This document shows positions 4,423-58,750 of a stretch of 64,000 nt of DNA, piece by piece. Positions within the stretch are counted from its first letter, which is position 1. Every line of letters starts with the position of its first letter. Position numbers and translations under genes: made by a program. Where the stretch lies: the NCBI GenBank assembly GCA_963783305.1, contig CAWAMW010000002.1:416001-480000 (forward strand). The letters are read 5' to 3'. Below the pieces are notes generated by a model. It was given only the letters and a program-made list of their open reading frames with translations. It was not told the DNA's origin and did no database searches. Origin of the DNA: an uncultured Gemmatimonadales bacterium (lineage in GTDB: Bacteria; Gemmatimonadota; Gemmatimonadetes; Longimicrobiales; RSA9).

Positions 4423-5217
4423 CTACGACGGCTGACAGCCCGGGCACCAGTACGTGCTCCGGCCCATGTCCCCCTGGAGGAACCGTTCGATGGCCGTGCC
4501 GCAGTCGAGGCACGGCTTGCCCGCCCGCCCATACACCCAGAGCCGCTGGCTCGACGGCGTGGGCCGGCGGCGGAGCGGCACGCTCGTCCTGCGCCGGGTG
4601 AGCAGGTTGAGCCGCATGAGGTGCGCGGCCTTCTCCATCAGCGACCGCACCCCCTCCGGGTCGAGGTTGCCCACGGGCGTGCGAGGATGCACCCGGCACT
4701 CGAAGAGGACCTCGCTCTTGTAGACGTTGCCGATCCCCGCAGCCACCCGCTGGTCGAGCAGCAGGTCGCCGATCTCGCGACCGGCGTACCCCGGCTGGAG
4801 CGCTCGCCGGACTGCCTCATCGATCTCCGGCGGGTCCGCCAGCAGGTCCGGGCCCAGGCGCGCCAGCTTCGGGTGTCTCGCGGCGTCGGCCGTACGGACC
4901 ATCTCCGCGCGATAGGCGCCCTCGCAGGCGTACACCGTCGGTCCGACCACCAGCGTGACCGTGGCCCGCGCCGGGCGACGCTGCCGCACGTGGAGCCGCC
5001 GCCATCTCCCGTTCATCCCCAGGTGGATCCGCACGCTCCAGCCGCCCGCCAGGTGGACGAGCATGTGCTTGCCCACCGCCTCCACGCCCTCGACCTCCCG
5101 GCCCGCCAGCTCCGCGATCTCGCCCGCGTCGTGCAGCGCCAGGCTGTCGACGCGCTTCCCCGTGATCTCCCGGCCCAGGATACGGGCGACCCGGTGGACG
5201 GTATCTCCCTCGGGCAC
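4423..5217 (-). CDS. nei: Fpg/Nei family DNA glycosylase/AP lyase
   Basis: GTG start then PEGDTV (catalytic Pro-Glu), GKHML, HLGMNG, H2TH motif LLDQRVAAGIGNVYKSE, C-terminal zinc finger CLDC...WCPGCQ. Start overlaps the lhr stop by one base (TAGTG). Confidence 0.93.
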   Translation of the reverse strand: MPEGDTVHRVARILGREITGKRVDSLALHDAGEIAELAGREVEGVEAVGKHMLVHLAGGWSVRIHLGMNGRWRRLHVRQRRPARATVTLVVGPTVYACEGAYRAEMVRTADAARHPKLARLGPDLLADPPEIDEAVRRALQPGYAGREIGDLLLDQRVAAGIGNVYKSEVLFECRVHPRTPVGNLDPEGVRSLMEKAAHLMRLNLLTRRRTSVPLRRRPTPSSQRLWVYGRAGKPCLDCGTAIERFLQGDMGRSTYWCPGCQPS

Positions 5218-8200
5218 TATCGATCTCCGCTGATCCGCACGTACCGGTAGTCCGGCGTGAACCCGGCGGCCTCCATGGCCCCCAGGAGCGGGGACCGGAA
5301 CGCCGCCTCGCCGTCCACCGTCTCCAGGGAGAGCACCCGCCGCGCCTGCCGCGCGGCCACGGCGCGCAGCAATGGCAGCGCCCGGGCCACCCGGTCCGGC
5401 TCCACGCCCGCAAACGTCCTCAGGCGACGGCCGCGCCGGTCCAGGTAGAGCACCGGCGCGCCGTCCACCAGCACTACCACCGAGCCGGTGGAGCGCGTCG
5501 GGGCCCGACCGCTCGACTCGGTCAGCTCGGGCCACGGCAGCAGCCAGCCGTACGGGTTCGCCGGGTCGGTGGCCGCCAGCGCCACCACCTCCCCCTCCGC
5601 CTCCCCGTCGCGGACGCGCCGCAGCCGGTCCACCAGACCGGGGTAGGCGAACTGCGCGCCGCCCAGTCCCTCGACGAAGTAGCCGCGACGCACCTTCCCC
5701 TGCTCCTCCAGCGACCGCAGCACCCGGTACACGCTCGAGAACCCGCCGCCCAGCGCTTCCACCGACGCCGTCTCCCGCGCCACGACGCCGTGCCGGTCGA
5801 GCAGCGTCATCGCCCACGCGGCCGCCCGCTCCGTGGAGCTCACGGGCTGCCGGACCAGGTCCCGGACCAGCGACCAGCGACCGCCGGGGCCCGCCGACCC
5901 CGCACCGCTTCCGCCCGCCCGCCCCAGCACCTTGCCGGGACGCGGGAGCCCGGCGCGCGGCCGCCCGCCAGGTCGTCCCGGCCGGCCGGCCCGGCCGCTC
6001 CGCCTCGAGCTCCCGCGCCGGGAGGACGGCTGCGACAGATGGCGGAGTGCCGCGAAGGTGTCGTTCGTCACGAGCCCGCCCCACACGAGGTCCCAGACCG
6101 CCTCGAGGAGCCGGTCCGGGGACACGTCCGGCAGCGCGGCCGCGAGCTCGCCGTGAAACGAGGCGCCCCGGCCGTCGAGGTGCTCCAGGACGCGGCGGTG
6201 CCGGTCGTCGAACGTCTCCACCAGCTCGGCGGCGTCGTCCAGCGCGGGCGGCACGAGGAGGCGGTCCACTCGATCCCGCCGGTAGAGCAGGACCCGGCCG
6301 TCGTCGCTCCGGAGCGGGGAGTGGCCGACCCAGACCAGCCACCCCAACGACCCCAACTCGTCCAGCATGGCCGGGTGGAAGTCGCGCACCCGGGATGGCA
6401 GGATCATCCGCACCAGCTCGCGGTAGCTGAGCGGGATCCCCTCGAGCTGGATGAGGGCGTCCTCGACACTGTCATGGAGGTCCCCACTCACCCGGTGCCA
6501 CGACGGGAGGAACCGCGCGAGCACCTCCGGGTCCACCGGCGCCACCTGGCCCCGCAGCTTCGCAATGGTCCACCGCTTGACCTGACGCAGCACCTCCGGG
6601 TCCACCCACTCCTCGCCCTCCGCGCCCGGGCGGAACTCGCCCCGGAGGAGCCGACCGTCATCGGCGAGACCCTTCAGCAGCGACCGCACCTGCGCCGGCA
6701 CCAGACCGTAGCGCTCCGCGAGCTCCCCGGCGGTGAACGGGCCGTGCGTCCGGGCGTAGCGACCCAGCAGCTGCTCCACCGGGTCCGCCGCGGGCTCCAG
6801 GAACGCCGACGCCACCCCCGCCGGTGGCGCCACTCCCAGCGCGTCCCGATAGAGCGCCACGTCCTCCACGGCCACCCATGCGTCCCGCCCCGCCACGCGC
6901 ACGCGCGCCGCCCGGCGAGCGGAGCGCAGCTCCGCGAGCCAGCCCTCGAGTGTGCGTCGGGCCGCGTCGGCATCGATGTCGCTCTCCGCGGCAGTGGTCG
7001 CTGTTCCGCCCTCCACGCTCGACGATCGATGATCGAACCGCTCGAGCAGCTCTGCTTTCGTCAGGTCGCCCAACTCCCGCAGCACGTCGTGGAGCGCGTC
7101 CGGGTGCCGCGCCCGCCGACCTTCCGTCCGCCGCTGCAGCCGGTCCTCCACCTCGGTGATGACGTCGGCGTCCAGCAGCTCCCGCATGTCCGCCTCGCCC
7201 AGCAGCTCCCGGAGCAGCTCCATGTCCACCGAGAGCGCCTGCGCCCGCCTCTCCGCCGCCGGCGAGTCCCCCTCGTAGAGATAGGCGGCGACGTAGGCGT
7301 ACACGAGCGAGCGGGCGAACGGGGACGCGCTCGACGTCTCCACCTCGTGGACCCGGATCTCCCGGCTCCCGATCCGCCGCAGCACGTCCCGCAGCGCGGG
7401 CACATCGAAGACGTCCTGGAGGCTCGAGCGGTAGGTCTCCATGACGATGGGGAAGCTCGGGTACTGCATGGCCACGCCCATGAGCTTCTGGGCCCGGAGC
7501 CGCTGGGCGAACAGCGGCGTGCGGTGCCCGGGCCGGCGTCTCGGCAGGAGGAGCGCGCGGGCGGCGTTCTCCCGGAACTGGCTGGCGAAGAGCGGGCTCC
7601 GGGCCAGCTCGTCGATCACCCGGTCCTCGATCTCGTCCGGATCAGGGATGAGGCGGTCGAGCTCCGGCGGCTCATCGCCGGCGGCCAGGGTCAGGACGAT
7701 GCCGTCGTCGGACCAGACGGTCTGGACGTCATAGCCCACGCGCTCGCTGACCAGCCCGCGGATGGCCAGCGCCCACGGCGCATGCACCCGCGAGCCGAAC
7801 GGCGTCAGGATGCAGACGCGCCAGTCACCGAGCTCGTCGCGGAACCGCTCGAGCGTGATGTCGCGGTCGGTGGGCAGGGTGCCCGTCGCGTGCTCCTGGT
7901 CGGCCACGTAGTCCACCAGGTTGCGGGCCGCCCATTCGTCCAGGCCGAACTCCTGCCGGAGCCGCGACACCGCCGCCTCCTCGTCCCCGGCCACGACGCG
8001 GTCGCCGATCTCGCGGGTGAACGCGCCCAGCGCACGACCCAGCTCCAGCGGACGGCCGGGACCCTCACCCTTCCAGAACGGCAGCCGCCCCGGCTCGCCG
8101 GGCGCCGGCTCCACGATCACGCGGTCGCGGGTGATATCCTGGATCCGCCAGGTCGTGGCGCCCAGCGTGAACGTCTGCCCCGGCTGCGACTCGTGCACCA

Positions 8201-9824
8201 TCTCCTCGTCCAGCTCGCCCACCCGCGGGCCGTCCTCCCCCAGGTAGACGGCGAACAGACCGCGGTCGGGGATGGTGCCGGCGTTCACCGCGGCCAGCAT
8301 CCGCGCGCCGCGCCGGCCGCTGATGACGTCGCGTTCCCGGTCCCAGTGGATCCGGGGCCGGAGCTCGCTGAACTCGTGCGACGGGTACAGCCCCGACAGC
8401 ATGTCGAGCACACCTGTCAGCGCCGACTCCGGCAGCTCCCGGAAGTTGGCCGACCGGCGGACCAGCTTCGCGAGGTCGTCGACCGGCCAGTCCTGAACCG
8501 CCGCCATGGCGACGATGTGCTGGGCCAGCACGTCCAGCGGGTTGGTCGGGACGCGGAGCGGCTCGATGGCACCCTCCCGCATCCGCTGCGCGACAATGGC
8601 CGCCTCCAGCAGGTCGCCCCGGTGCTTGGGGAAGACGCGGCCTATGCTGGGCTCACCCACCTGGTGACCCGCGCGACCCACACGCTGGAGCCCGCTCGAT
8701 ACCGACCCCGGGCTCTCCACCAGGATCACCAGGTCCACCGCGCCCATGTCGATCCCCAGCTCCAGTGAGCTGGTAGCCACGATCGCAGGCAGCGACCCGG
8801 CCTTGAGCGCCTCCTCCACCTCCCGCCGCTGCTCGTGCGCAAGGCTCCCGTGATGCGACCGCACCAGCTCCTCGCCCGCCTGCTCGTTCAGCCGCTGCGC
8901 CAGCCGCTCCGCCAGGCCCCGGCTGTTCACGAAGATGATGGTCGTGCGATGCGAACGGATCAGCCTCAGGATCCGCGGATAGACCGCCGGCCAGATCCCG
9001 TACTGCCGCGTCACCTCCTCTTCCTCCGCCAGCATCAGCGACCCCGGCGGCTCCTCCCCCTCCTCGATTACGGCGAAGTCCCCGTCCTCCGTCTCCACCA
9101 CCGGCCGCGTCATGTCCTCCACCGGGACGATGACCTGCAGGTCCAGCAGGGGCGGGACGTGGGCGTCGATGACGGTGACCGGGCGGTCGCCGGCGAGGAA
9201 GCGCGCGACCTCGTCCGCCGGCCGGGCTGTGGCGCTCAGGCCGATCCGCTGCGGATCCTCGTCCGCCACCCGGCTCAGCCGCTCCAGCGACAGCGACAGG
9301 TGCGCCCCGCGCTTCGTGGCCGCCATGGCGTGGATCTCGTCCACGATCACCCACTTCACGCTCCGGAACGTCTCCCGCGCCTGCCCGCCCAGCAGCAGGT
9401 AGAGCGACTCCGGCGTGGTCACCAGGATCTCGCCCGGGTCCCGGATCTGACGACGGCGGTCGCTCTGCGGCGTGTCCCCCGTCCGCACGTCCACACGCGG
9501 ATGACGGTAGTGCTCCCCCAGCCGCGCGGCCGCCCGCTCGATCCCCGCCAGCGGTGTCCGCAGGTTCCGCTCGATGTCATAGACCAGCGCCTTCAGCGGC
9601 GACACGTAAACGACCCGGACCCCCGGCTCCGCGTCGTCCTCCAGCCGACCCAGCCGGTCCAGCGCGTACAGAAACGCCGCCAGTGTCTTTCCGCTCCCGG
9701 TCGGCGCGATCAGTAGCGTGTTCTCCCCAGCCGCGATGCGCGGCCAACCCTCGCCCTGCACCTCCGTGGGCGCGGCGAAGGCGCGGTCGAACCAGTCGCG
9801 GGTGGCGGGCGTGAAGTAGTCCAT
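5217..9824 (-). CDS. lhr: Full-length Lhr-family SF2 ATP-dependent helicase
   Basis: APTGSGKT, DEIH, LSAT, HHGSL, ATSSLELGIDMG, QRVGRAGH, plus Lhr C-terminal region (RRGYFVEGLGGAQF, DPANPYG); 1535 aa. Confidence 0.95.
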   Translation of the reverse strand: MDYFTPATRDWFDRAFAAPTEVQGEGWPRIAAGENTLLIAPTGSGKTLAAFLYALDRLGRLEDDAEPGVRVVYVSPLKALVYDIERNLRTPLAGIERAAARLGEHYRHPRVDVRTGDTPQSDRRRQIRDPGEILVTTPESLYLLLGGQARETFRSVKWVIVDEIHAMAATKRGAHLSLSLERLSRVADEDPQRIGLSATARPADEVARFLAGDRPVTVIDAHVPPLLDLQVIVPVEDMTRPVVETEDGDFAVIEEGEEPPGSLMLAEEEEVTRQYGIWPAVYPRILRLIRSHRTTIIFVNSRGLAERLAQRLNEQAGEELVRSHHGSLAHEQRREVEEALKAGSLPAIVATSSLELGIDMGAVDLVILVESPGSVSSGLQRVGRAGHQVGEPSIGRVFPKHRGDLLEAAIVAQRMREGAIEPLRVPTNPLDVLAQHIVAMAAVQDWPVDDLAKLVRRSANFRELPESALTGVLDMLSGLYPSHEFSELRPRIHWDRERDVISGRRGARMLAAVNAGTIPDRGLFAVYLGEDGPRVGELDEEMVHESQPGQTFTLGATTWRIQDITRDRVIVEPAPGEPGRLPFWKGEGPGRPLELGRALGAFTREIGDRVVAGDEEAAVSRLRQEFGLDEWAARNLVDYVADQEHATGTLPTDRDITLERFRDELGDWRVCILTPFGSRVHAPWALAIRGLVSERVGYDVQTVWSDDGIVLTLAAGDEPPELDRLIPDPDEIEDRVIDELARSPLFASQFRENAARALLLPRRRPGHRTPLFAQRLRAQKLMGVAMQYPSFPIVMETYRSSLQDVFDVPALRDVLRRIGSREIRVHEVETSSASPFARSLVYAYVAAYLYEGDSPAAERRAQALSVDMELLRELLGEADMRELLDADVITEVEDRLQRRTEGRRARHPDALHDVLRELGDLTKAELLERFDHRSSSVEGGTATTAAESDIDADAARRTLEGWLAELRSARRAARVRVAGRDAWVAVEDVALYRDALGVAPPAGVASAFLEPAADPVEQLLGRYARTHGPFTAGELAERYGLVPAQVRSLLKGLADDGRLLRGEFRPGAEGEEWVDPEVLRQVKRWTIAKLRGQVAPVDPEVLARFLPSWHRVSGDLHDSVEDALIQLEGIPLSYRELVRMILPSRVRDFHPAMLDELGSLGWLVWVGHSPLRSDDGRVLLYRRDRVDRLLVPPALDDAAELVETFDDRHRRVLEHLDGRGASFHGELAAALPDVSPDRLLEAVWDLVWGGLVTNDTFAALRHLSQPSSRRGSSRRSGRAGRPGRPGGRPRAGLPRPGKVLGRAGGSGAGSAGPGGRWSLVRDLVRQPVSSTERAAAWAMTLLDRHGVVARETASVEALGGGFSSVYRVLRSLEEQGKVRRGYFVEGLGGAQFAYPGLVDRLRRVRDGEAEGEVVALAATDPANPYGWLLPWPELTESSGRAPTRSTGSVVVLVDGAPVLYLDRRGRRLRTFAGVEPDRVARALPLLRAVAARQARRVLSLETVDGEAAFRSPLLGAMEAAGFTPDYRYVRISGDR

Positions 9825-9856
9825 GGGAGGCGATGCTACCCGCGCGGCGCGGGACG

Positions 9857-9959
9857 GTTCACAGGGCGGCTGCGCCGCCGTTCACGGTTCACGGTTCACG
9901 GTTCACGGTTCACGGGCCGGCGCCGTTCACGGTGCATGGTGCATGGTTCACGGTTCACG
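9857..9959. repeat. Heptamer tandem repeat (GTTCACG)n with GTGCATG variants
   Basis: Five perfect copies at 9880-9914; a second block of five heptamers at 9925-9959 (GTTCACG, GTGCATG x2, GTTCACG x2); a variant at 9857. Confidence 0.9.
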
Positions 9960-10013
9960 GGCCGGCGAGAACGCCGTGGCGATTGGCGGCTGGGCCTGGT
10001 GGACGGCCTGACC

Positions 10014-10215
10014 ATTCCGGGGAACTCCCCAACCAACGGGGGTTTCACGGTTCATTGGGGACTCGACCGGACATATTCCGGGGAAGTCCCCGAGGGATCA
10101 TGGGTTGGCGCAATTCGTTGGGGAGTTCTCCGGAGTATGTCCGGGGAAGTCCCCAGATTTCGCACCACCCACCGTTGTTTGGGGACTTGACCGGGTACCG
10201 CACCGGGAAGTGGGG
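10014..10215. repeat. Array of 35-bp imperfect palindromes with 26-28-nt unique spacers (REP/BIME-like)
   Basis: Half unit at 10014-10030; GGGGACTCGACCGGACATATTCCGGGGAAGTCCCC at 10057-10091; GGGGAGTTCTCCGGAGTATGTCCGGGGAAGTCCCC at 10120-10154; degenerate unit at 10181-10215. Confidence 0.85.
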
Positions 10216-10233
10216 GCGGCCGGCCACGGCCGC

Positions 10234-10305
10234 CCTCCTCTCGGCCCCCTCCTCTCGGCCGCTCTCCGCTCGGCCGCTCTCCGCTCGACCGCCCCCACTC
10301 GGCCG
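10234..10305. repeat. Degenerate 14-15-nt tandem repeat (GCTCTCCGCTCGGCC-like)
   Basis: About five adjacent copies: CCTCCTCTCGGCC twice, GCTCTCCGCTCGGCC, GCTCTCCGCTCGACC, GCCCCCACTCGGCC. Confidence 0.75.
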
Positions 10306-10331
10306 CCCAGCTCCCATCGCACCTGCGTGGC

Positions 10332-11321
10332 TCACCGGACCAGCGCCTGGGCCAGCTTCACCAGGAGTTGGCGCGGCTCCCGAACGATCTGCCGCCAGGT
10401 GACCCGCATGGTCCGATATCCCGCCGCCATGAGTACGGCGTCCCGGTTCCGATCGGCCTCGAAGGCATGATCCCCGTCGTGGTATGCGCGGCCGTCGACT
10501 TCGACGATCAGACGTTCATCGGGCCAGAGGGAGTCCACCTCGAAACCCTCGACGACGACGTTGGTTTTCGGCCGGGGCAGCTCGGCGCCGCGGACCAGGT
10601 CGTGGAACCGGCGCTCGGCCTCGGACCGGAGGAAGGCGGGTTCACCGTCGGCGTCCAGGAGCGCCCGCAGCCGACCGCGTCCCGCGCGGCGCTGATAGCG
10701 GTCGAGGAGCACCTCGAAGTCCCCTGGAGTGACCATGTCCCGCCGGAGCGCGGTCGCCAGCGCGCGTTCGAGATCCCTGCCGCCACAGACGCCGTCCCTG
10801 CCGCCACAGACGCCGGCGAGGTCGAGGATGGTCCGGGCGGCAGAGGTCAGGGGGAGCCCCTCCCGAGCCGTCACTTCGTCGGCCCCGAGGGCGCTCACCC
10901 GATGGATCCGGATCGCCGAACCTCCGATTCGCACGTCCCGGATCGTGCTGATCTCCACGGGCGCGTCCGCGGCCAGCGGCGGCAGGAGCTCGAGAACCGC
11001 GGCGGCCGCACGGTGGCTGACGAAACAACCATCGCCCGTGGCCAGAACCGCGGCGAGCTCCCGCGCCCGTGGCCCGGCCACGGCCCGGACTGCATAGACG
11101 CCCCGATACACCGACGTCAGCACCCCGCACTCGAGCCGGTACTCGATCCGGTTCCCGGAAATCCCGGCCGCGATCAGCTGCGACCGCGCCACTACCCCAT
11201 GCTGCCGAGCCGCGATCTGATGAATCGCCGCGTCGGCCCGGGCGCTCCCGGACACCGTGCGATGGCTCCCACACGTTCTCTCCACCCGTCGAAGCTCACG
11301 CGTGGGACGGGGCAACACCAT
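10332..11321 (-). CDS. AbiEi-like N-terminal domain plus DUF559 (Vsr/PD-(D/E)XK-like) endonuclease-domain protein
   Basis: IAARQHGVVARSQL and VYRGVY (AbiEi-type), VSHRAAA, LTSAARTILDLA, then RSEAERRF...FEVDSLWPDERLIVEVDGRAYH...DRNRDAVLMAAGYRTMRVTW (DUF559). Start uncertain (11321 or a GTG near 11255). Confidence 0.85.
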   Translation of the reverse strand: MVLPRPTRELRRVERTCGSHRTVSGSARADAAIHQIAARQHGVVARSQLIAAGISGNRIEYRLECGVLTSVYRGVYAVRAVAGPRARELAAVLATGDGCFVSHRAAAAVLELLPPLAADAPVEISTIRDVRIGGSAIRIHRVSALGADEVTAREGLPLTSAARTILDLAGVCGGRDGVCGGRDLERALATALRRDMVTPGDFEVLLDRYQRRAGRGRLRALLDADGEPAFLRSEAERRFHDLVRGAELPRPKTNVVVEGFEVDSLWPDERLIVEVDGRAYHDGDHAFEADRNRDAVLMAAGYRTMRVTWRQIVREPRQLLVKLAQALVR

Positions 11322-11376
11322 GGCGGAGCGGGACGGGCCCGTAGATTCCGACGCCCCCCGCCATCGCGAAGGACCC

Positions 11377-11405
11377 TTGACATGATATATCGGCGATCTA
11401 TATGT
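11377..11405 (+). promoter_or_regulatory. Putative promoter (-35 TTGACA) with overlapping palindromic operator for the PadR operon
   Basis: TTGACA at 11377-11382; ATATA-N9-TATAT at 11385-11403 in an AT-rich patch just upstream of padR. No perfect -10 seen. Confidence 0.6.
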
Positions 11406-11442
11406 ATAGGAACACACACTCACATGGACACCGAGCCACGGC

Positions 11443-11811
11443 ATGACCTTCGACGCGCAGTCCCTGCCGAAACGGCTGAACGAGCTGCTCATACTCCAGG
11501 AGCTGGATCGAGGCCCGCTGCATGGCTATCAGATCGCACTGGCGGTGGAGGACCGGAGCGAGGGGTATTTCGCGTTCAGCCACGGCACGCTCTACCCGAT
11601 CCTGCACCGCCTGGAGAAGGACGGTCTGATCGCGGGCCGGTGGTCTGACCCGGCGGAAGGTCGTCCGCGCAAGGAATATGAGATGACGGAGGCGGGTCGG
11701 ATCCATCTGGGGGCGCTGATCAGCGATTGGAGGAAGCTGAACGCCCGGGTCGAGACATTCCTGGAAATGGGGGAGGCGACGGATGGAGAGATTCGCACCG
11801 GCGCTGCGTAG
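11443..11811 (+). CDS. PadR family transcriptional regulator
   Basis: LHGYQIA...GTLYPILHRLEKDGLI...RPRKEYEMTEAG. Confidence 0.93.
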   Translation: MTFDAQSLPKRLNELLILQELDRGPLHGYQIALAVEDRSEGYFAFSHGTLYPILHRLEKDGLIAGRWSDPAEGRPRKEYEMTEAGRIHLGALISDWRKLNARVETFLEMGEATDGEIRTGAA

Positions 11812-58490: not shown

Positions 58491-58575
58491 CTTCGGCAAG
58501 AAAGGATCGATCGGGAGTAGCCGTCGGCGTTTTCGGGCTAGCGTGTCTCATCGGCGGGTTGTGCGTGCGTCGCCC

Positions 58576-58750
58576 GGTGTTCGCAGCCATGGTCGGCCGG
58601 TGTGAGGCGAAGGGCTGCAAAGGCCATGAGTATCCTGGTGTTCGCAGCCACGGATGTGCCTCCGGGCATCCGCGGCGGCAGACTCCATGACCCTCATGGG
58701 GTTCGCAGCACTGGGTCCCCGGGCGGACCACCCGGGCTGCGTCCACCACG
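58576..58750. repeat. Array of 37-bp imperfect palindromes with 24-nt spacers (period 61)
   Basis: Half unit GGTGTTCGCAGCC at 58576-58588; GGCTGCAAAGGCCATGAGTATCCTGGTGTTCGCAGCC at 58613-58649; GGCGGCAGACTCCATGACCCTCATGGGGTTCGCAGCA at 58674-58710; half unit GGCTGCGTCCACCACG from 58735. Confidence 0.75.

Follow-up and report, generated by a model that had tools for sequence, protein, structure and literature searches.

I propose that a nuclease gene of an uncultured Gemmatimonadales bacterium and a 180-bp element beside it form a cognate pair, in which the protein would bind and cut the element in a competence-like state and recombination would copy and homogenise it. I put the probability of this reading at about 0.55. 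Both lie in the window, the 64,000-nucleotide stretch of DNA that was analysed; the genome it comes from is called G000 below, and its relatives are numbered likewise. The association of such genes with such elements is well supported by sequence comparison, which also bears out the view of a preliminary description that this is a nuclease-plus-repeat module resembling a REPtron: the closest homologues have a cognate element beside them, copies are dispersed, and the element co-varies with the protein. The findings point to an undescribed enzyme-and-repeat partnership; a search of the open literature, with subscription journals largely outside its coverage, found no description of DUF559/AbiEi genes with cognate repeats. 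New here are a geometry fixed at three units, evidence that speaks against selection for hairpins, the concerted evolution at old sites and the shared promoter motif of competence type.

The element and its neighbouring gene

The element (type A, 10015..10196) is dyad-symmetric and of fixed length, about 182 bp, and runs half-site, palindrome, palindrome, half-site with a period of 61-63 bp. Its terminal half-sites lie at 10015..10030 on the plus strand, extending about 9 nt into the first spacer, and at 10181..10196 on the minus strand. The inner 35-bp palindromes are at 10057..10091 (palindrome A: a 15-bp arm, a 5-bp AT-rich centre and a 15-bp arm) and, 63 bp from it, at 10120..10154 (palindrome B); the second matches the first best as its reverse complement, with 6 mismatches, as had been noted. 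Four units with gaps of 26, 28 and 26 nt had been described, and their coordinates and sizes hold, except that the fourth, thought to be a degenerate unit, is the terminal half-site; the remainder of that unit (10197-10215) falls outside the element. Nor are the spacers, correct though their lengths were, free sequence. The half-sites, whose real size is ~23 bp, take up about 9 nt at the spacer ends and leave ~8-11 nt variable.

The whole is thus six alternating ~23-bp half-sites, or three tandem units of 61-63 bp. The copies of a relative, G004 (11 copies, with a consensus 80% self-complementary about its centre), have five symmetry centres, and both ends fall no more than 1 nt from the expected start of a further 5-bp centre, so that the element is three tandem units truncated at a centre position on either side. 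When a matrix of the half-site, derived from three loci of G000, was run over the 4.35 Mb of that genome, it found clusters at only those three places, each with six half-sites in identical geometry: the one beside the gene and two more on another contig (C16:129140-129322 and C16:138265-138447), near which no homologue of the gene was found. The repeat is not due to chance, and since its half-sites cluster at just three places, always six and with the same spacing, it is a fixed element and not a growing array. Type A has a strong AT periodicity of ~10.2 bp (0/1000 shuffles), which derives in part from the 61-bp repeat as its harmonic; a second type of element, type B, lacks it (810/1000 shuffles).

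Four tandem repeats of 14-15 bp, flanking slippage repeats, lie between the gene and the element (10227..10290), and a tandem repeat with a 7-bp unit, which recurs elsewhere in the genome, lies on the element's other side (9873..9962). Short tandem repeats and duplications of the element's own ends are likewise frequent beside copies in relatives. The former adjoin 48 of 100 element sides against 34 of 300 post-stop controls, an excess that is only a hint because the controls include coding DNA.

It had been suggested that the array might be transcribed and processed to structured or guide RNAs for the nuclease. The element does lie on the gene's likely transcript, and the downstream strand is more stably folded than 100 shuffled versions (z -3.99), but any palindrome array folds well. 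The number of units is fixed, the free part of each spacer is short, the element may stand upstream or downstream of the gene, and a search of Rfam over 9800-11450 gave nothing near threshold and no intron match. Moreover, at none of the five centres do the two arms of one copy pair better than arms taken from different copies (permutation p 0.15-0.99), a comparison of limited power with 11 copies. The lack of compensatory pairing gives the symmetry the look of protein sites on duplex DNA and not of a selected hairpin. The copies favour putative double-stranded binding sites over hairpins or guide RNAs, and I consider the RNA proposal very improbable.

The gene (10332..11285, minus strand) has its stop at 10332, 136 nt from the element, which lies downstream. 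Its start had been placed at an ATG at 11321, but this falls within a conserved promoter-like motif (GTCCC-N5-GCCAT-N6-GCCCC; 11306..11340, minus strand), and a GTG at 11285 or 11255 is more likely; the former is 55 nt after the start of the motif, as in other genes led by it. An in-frame 21-nt duplication lies inside the gene (10774-10815). The original identification as an AbiEi/DUF559 gene stands, since Pfam matches AbiEi_4, DUF559 and MTES_1575; PADLOC calls AbiEi (E 9.7e-25), and no NCBIfam family was found for the protein. An AbiEii toxin partner is indeed absent: the neighbours are lhr and padR, and the sole AbiEii match in the genome is on contig C7. Directly downstream of the element (4423-9824) are the lhr helicase gene and then a gene for an Fpg/Nei-like glycosylase, co-directional with the nuclease gene, so that read-through from the motif-led promoter is possible.

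A structure model of the protein (mean pLDDT 88.8) divides its 307-aa form into an AbiEi-fold part, a winged helix plus C-terminal domain (residues 6-207; 10635..11240, minus strand), and a Vsr/I-Bth0305I-like nuclease domain (residues 208-307; 10335..10634, minus strand). The first compares with AbiEi 6y8q at Z 14.0 (rmsd 4.0, 187 aligned) and with Rv2827c (1zel) at Z 10.9, the second with I-Bth0305I 3r3p at Z 13.1 and with Vsr 1cw0 at Z 11.6. S211, E214, N232, D241, E252, H259 and D268 are invariant in 32 sequences, and D241, H259 and D268 align with D196, H213 and D222 of I-Bth0305I, which are catalytic (PMC3239194, in the available text). As modelled, then, the protein joins a complete AbiEi fold to a nuclease of the Vsr/I-Bth0305I type, with the predicted active site conserved. 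I-Bth0305I is a dimer with a ~60-bp footprint that cleaves at the centre of a pseudopalindrome (PMC3239194), and monomers of AbiEi sit on 23-bp inverted repeats and bend the DNA (PMC7319586). These sizes match the unit period and the half-site of the element, an agreement by analogy only.

Genes, elements and copies among relatives

Homologues (E < 1e-40) occur in 49 of the 73 genomes of the family, up to 7 in each, and of 200 other genomes sampled across the phylum only 5 gave a match. A tree was made of 112 distinct loci (103 from the numbered genomes and 9 distant), taking in most, though not all, of the matches listed. In it the protein forms one clade with genes of G003, G004 and G006, and the element lies just downstream in all four; the element profile was trained on these four loci, the clade itself being independent of the training. 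A period test blind to sequence put the best lag at 60-63 bp for 31 of 205 flanks of homologues and for 0 of 599 controls. Paired 35-bp palindromes 60-63 bp apart were found in 54 of 215 flanks, belonging to 48 of the 112 genes, against 4 of 299 control flanks. The controls were flanks of long open frames in G000; they include coding DNA and are unmatched in intergenic length. The element scan found none beside 50 of the 83 homologues with both flanks of at least 600 nt. Sequence collections searched with the protein as single query yielded distant relatives only, 32-39% identical where the match was near full length, and the element scan detected none beside the 9 of these that it included.

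It had been proposed that the array should be checked for co-variation with the protein, and it does co-vary. Arm identity grows with protein identity, from 0.37 below 42% to 0.63 above 60%; the Mantel value (rho 0.37, p 0.0005, on the 39 genes left after removal of 11 flank matches that were plain tandem duplications or off-centre calls) is overstated, since kin share gene and element by descent. Paralogues in the same genome have an arm identity of only 0.44, so that element sequence tracks the protein, not the host, and G003 and G004 each have two paralogues that differ in element, one with type A and one with type B. There are exceptions. A locus of another clade, L072, has a type-A-like element by its gene, and the closest protein and the closest element disagree for several genes, the gene in the window ranking 11 of 38. 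Across element types, T is found at arm positions 7 and 8 in 82% and 77%, respectively, and A/T at the centre in 82%; these points are one helical turn apart.

The elements might instead be MITEs or REPs spread by another enzyme, a Y1 transposase-like protein or an integrase of the same regulon, that tend to land beside these genes. Two Y1_Tnp genes are present in the genome, both behind the same promoter motif, and G006 has 19 type-B matches, although its assembly, 95% complete, showed no gene of the type-B clade. Against this, the type-A copies of the genome are all away from the two Y1 genes, and within one genome the type of element follows the clade of nuclease (types A and B in G003 and G004). 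Y1 enzymes recognise single-strand hairpins, whereas no compensatory pairing is seen among the 11 copies compared here. I regard spread by another enzyme as distinctly unlikely.

The missing type-B gene of G006 had been predicted to lie between two direct type-B copies, and an Arc-like and PIN-like gene pair was found there instead. The copies are near-identical (L223:550-1940, G006:C94:52554-53933; the gene names were assigned by eye), and the arrangement resembles a composite transposon with a toxin-antitoxin cargo.

The position of the element relative to the gene varies within the family, upstream or downstream, and in several homologues it lies between the promoter motif and the gene. Such a place would suit arrays of operators, with the AbiEi part a repressor, the elements its operators for itself and its neighbours, and the nuclease domain incidental; 23-bp inverted repeats do serve AbiEi and Rv2827c for autoregulation, and Rv2827c has four of them in tandem (PMC7319586). 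It does not suit the clade of the gene in the window, where the element is downstream. Nor would a repressor account for catalytic residues that are invariant, or for whole 180-bp units, spacers included, multiplied in another genome (G064), and the neighbours of the copies, looked at informally, have no evident common function. The operator reading is unlikely.

Dispersed full-length type-A copies are found in the hosts of the three closest homologues, with 8 aligned in G003, 11 in G004 and 10 in G006. A model search gave 18, 23 and 21 matches in these genomes and 43 in G064 (both strands counted, 34 candidates scored per genome); 18 of the 73 genomes matched in all, G001 with two weak matches, and G002 and G005 had none. 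BLAST of the element against 40 relatives returned matches at chance level only, and a profile is required for finding copies. In G004, 11 of the 11 copies fetched are gap-free across 180 columns, with a top-base frequency of 0.75 inside against 0.48 in the flanks. In G064 19 of 19 are gapless at a mean identity of 0.85, spacers included, a young-looking expansion in one genome, which shows that whole elements do multiply. At no offset was a target-site duplication common to more than 4 of the 19 G064 copies or more than 2 of the 11 in G004; old copies may have lost any they had.

Within the genus the copies are old, since a number of those that stand alone are at sites orthologous between G003, G004 and G006. 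The description of the module as a selfish element that spreads is thus only partly borne out, by the young-looking expansion in G064 and not by these copies. Spacers at orthologous copies are mostly saturated (identity 0.25-0.50, with one pair at 0.79, on a background of ~0.34), and the motif columns tell another story. Those of the element in the window are 0.54 identical to the same site in G003 and 0.80 to the other copies of its own genome; likewise, G004 and G003 agree at 0.61-0.71 at the same site, and different sites within G004 at 0.78 (three partial copies were left out of these spacer and motif comparisons). On this sequence evidence the motif columns follow species and not site. 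That is concerted evolution, as would be expected if the resident protein selects or rewrites its sites.

The gene keeps one neighbourhood across the genus, with local rearrangements. G001 was considered as an empty site from before insertion, because it has neither gene nor element between the two genes that flank them in G003. It keeps a weak relic of the element at a site shared with G003, however, and with this relic and an assembly 74% complete, loss is as likely as insertion. A joint loss of gene and element in G005 was also rejected, as an internally deleted orthologue with a diverged pair of palindromes downstream survives there. That orthologue (L241:1300-2050, contig G005:C15) has lost most of the AbiEi C-terminal domain in frame, and its promoter motif is, by eye, intact.

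Other elements are present in G000. A third type, C, with a 61-bp period, occurs at five loci, one of them in the window (58575-58710, or C2:474575-474710) and one directly downstream of a paralogue at C2:487855. Four elements with periods of 61-62 bp are single-copy and have no homologue of the gene nearby (C2:401070, C11:33059, C15:374426 and C17:211953); they are possibly relics of lost paralogues. A frameshifted paralogue lies at C2:104613-105488 and has a weak promoter motif (11.4 bits).

A promoter-like motif before competence genes

The motif is found upstream of 86 of 102 genes of the family, against 0 of 102 on the reverse strand and 1 of 98 downstream. A -10-like hexamer stands at a fixed offset from it in 24 cases, that of the gene in the window being weak. 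When a model of the motif, trained solely on the regions upstream of nuclease-family genes, is run over G000, 42 sites reach at least 18 bits (on contig C2, 14 in the real sequence against 1 in the shuffled), many of them 54-56 nt before a start codon. Pfam domains of 20 genes behind the motif, from which the gene names comM, comF, pilB, recQ and ssb used here were read, include a ComM-type Mg-chelatase, a ComF-type zinc ribbon/PRTase, two RecQ, two SSB, RecX and UPF0102, and also a PilB-type ATPase, an integrase, PDDEXK_3, two four-helix-bundle proteins, a methylase and a MiaB ahead of comEC. It also precedes radC, both Y1 transposase-like genes, genes of the GxxExxY type and, weakly (12.8), recA; it was not found before dprA or two comEA-like genes of G000. 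Among relatives it stands before comM in 21 of 28 and before comF in 18 of 27, with 0 in downstream controls, and at comM/comF it is kept in two of the three families of the order.

The gene set led by the motif overlaps that of the gamma-proteobacterial competence regulon (Sxy/CRP-S; PMC1635313, in the available text). I infer that the motif would be a promoter induced in competence. The site at 11306-11340 and the 41 others in G000 make up a candidate regulon for competence and recombination.

A promoter motif in common with comM, comF, recQ, ssb and radC, and copies kept at orthologous sites in three species at a fixed length while their spacers saturate, could also speak for a domesticated function, in which the protein binds and nicks its dispersed elements for the host during competence or repair and the gain of copies is a rare by-product. 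The elements might then be recombination hot spots, marks that tell self from non-self in incoming DNA, or organisers of the chromosome. But it is hard to see in that case why a genome should have up to 7 paralogues with different elements, or why the gene should be so patchy (those 49 of 73 genomes) with several copies broken. Besides, Y1 transposase-like, integrase, GxxExxY-type and four-helix-bundle genes stand behind the same motif, which is what selfish genes riding a host regulon would be expected to show. I judge a host function unlikely, if less so than the other alternatives.

I return to the cognate pair. According to this model, AbiEi-fold subunits would sit on the six ~23-bp half-sites of the DNA duplex and, by bending it, shape a complex whose geometry is fixed: three 61-62-bp units of about six helical turns each. 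The Vsr-type domains, by analogy probably dimers, would nick or cut at the 5-bp AT-rich centres of the palindromes, where the element also ends. The gene would be switched on jointly with those for DNA uptake and recombination. Repair of the cuts by host recombination would occasionally copy the whole element to a new intergenic site and would keep existing copies matched to the resident protein, and the pair would persist vertically, as a RAYT does with its REPINs.

A bolder version, which I offer tentatively, is that the fusion of an antitoxin fold with a homing-type nuclease would wrap a helically phased 180-bp element and cut only in a competence-like state, leaving transformation and recombination to copy and homogenise it; each paralogue would be a separately addressable nuclease co-evolving with its element, and the whole a widespread and undescribed class of replicator.

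Relation to known systems

To my knowledge, no system other than RAYT-REPIN has been well described in which an enzyme kept by vertical descent maintains dispersed repeats of its own. A second, chemically unrelated solution would show that the arrangement arose twice, and it would give an independent handle on the role of such repeats, which is still open for RAYT-REPIN. It would provide a substrate for the large family of annotated but unexplained AbiEi_4/DUF559 proteins and dozens of natural protein-site pairs from which to learn a code of DNA recognition. The promoter motif, for its part, marks out a candidate competence regulon in a lineage where genetics is little developed. If all enzyme-plus-repeat partnerships are counted as one kind, then the present system is a variant and not a separate category.

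The system belongs neither with AbiE pairs nor with intron homing endonucleases or CRISPR arrays. From CRISPR or guide-RNA arrays it differs in its fixed six half-sites, conserved spacer ends, ~8-11 free nucleotides and want of an Rfam match. With bacterial MITEs it has in common fixed length, terminal inverted symmetry and dispersed non-coding copies (PMC3733652), but no target-site duplication was found (19 copies in G064, 11 in G004), no DDE transposase partner was seen, and the internal repeated sites are conserved throughout.

The likeness to I-Bth0305I and Vsr lies in the catalytic fold and aligned catalytic residues, and in a ~60-bp footprint equal to the unit period (PMC3239194; PMC3424549). 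Unlike I-Bth0305I, however, the gene here stands free between intact lhr and padR, with no intron or intein (no Rfam intron in 9800-11450); its DNA-binding domain is another one, and its putative site is kept beside the gene and not interrupted by it. Unlike the case of Vsr, no cytosine methyltransferase gene is adjacent. The type IV antitoxins AbiEi and Rv2827c share the whole two-domain fold and inverted ~23-bp half-sites (PMC7319586; 6y8q, 1zel), but here a nuclease is fused, no adjacent gene encodes an AbiEii nucleotidyltransferase toxin, and the sites are downstream of the gene and at distant loci, not over its promoter as in the available account (PMC7319586).

As in the Sxy/CRP-S regulon, one motif stands before comM, comF, pilB, ssb, radC and an operon leading to comEC, but the motif looks unrelated to the one in the available description, dprA and comEA are outside the set, and several mobile-type genes are inside it (PMC1635313).

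RAYT-REPIN systems resemble the present one in several ways: the gene of the enzyme adjoins the palindromic repeat cognate to it, further copies are scattered in extragenic DNA, the arms are conserved around a variable spacer, the pair persists vertically, and genes within one genome are repeat-specific (bioRxiv 10.1101/2021.07.10.451892; PMC3733652). The enzyme here is different, an AbiEi fold with a Vsr nuclease and not an HUH/Y1 transposase: Pfam finds no Y1_Tnp in it, and the two Y1 genes of the genome are far from all three elements. The element is a fixed 180-bp unit of six sites in few copies (3 to ~25), there is no sign of selection for hairpin pairing (11 copies, limited power), and the promoter-like motif is common to competence genes. 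The best reading of these sequences is a system that would act as the RAYT-REPIN partnership does, on unrelated chemistry, expressed along with the genes of competence.
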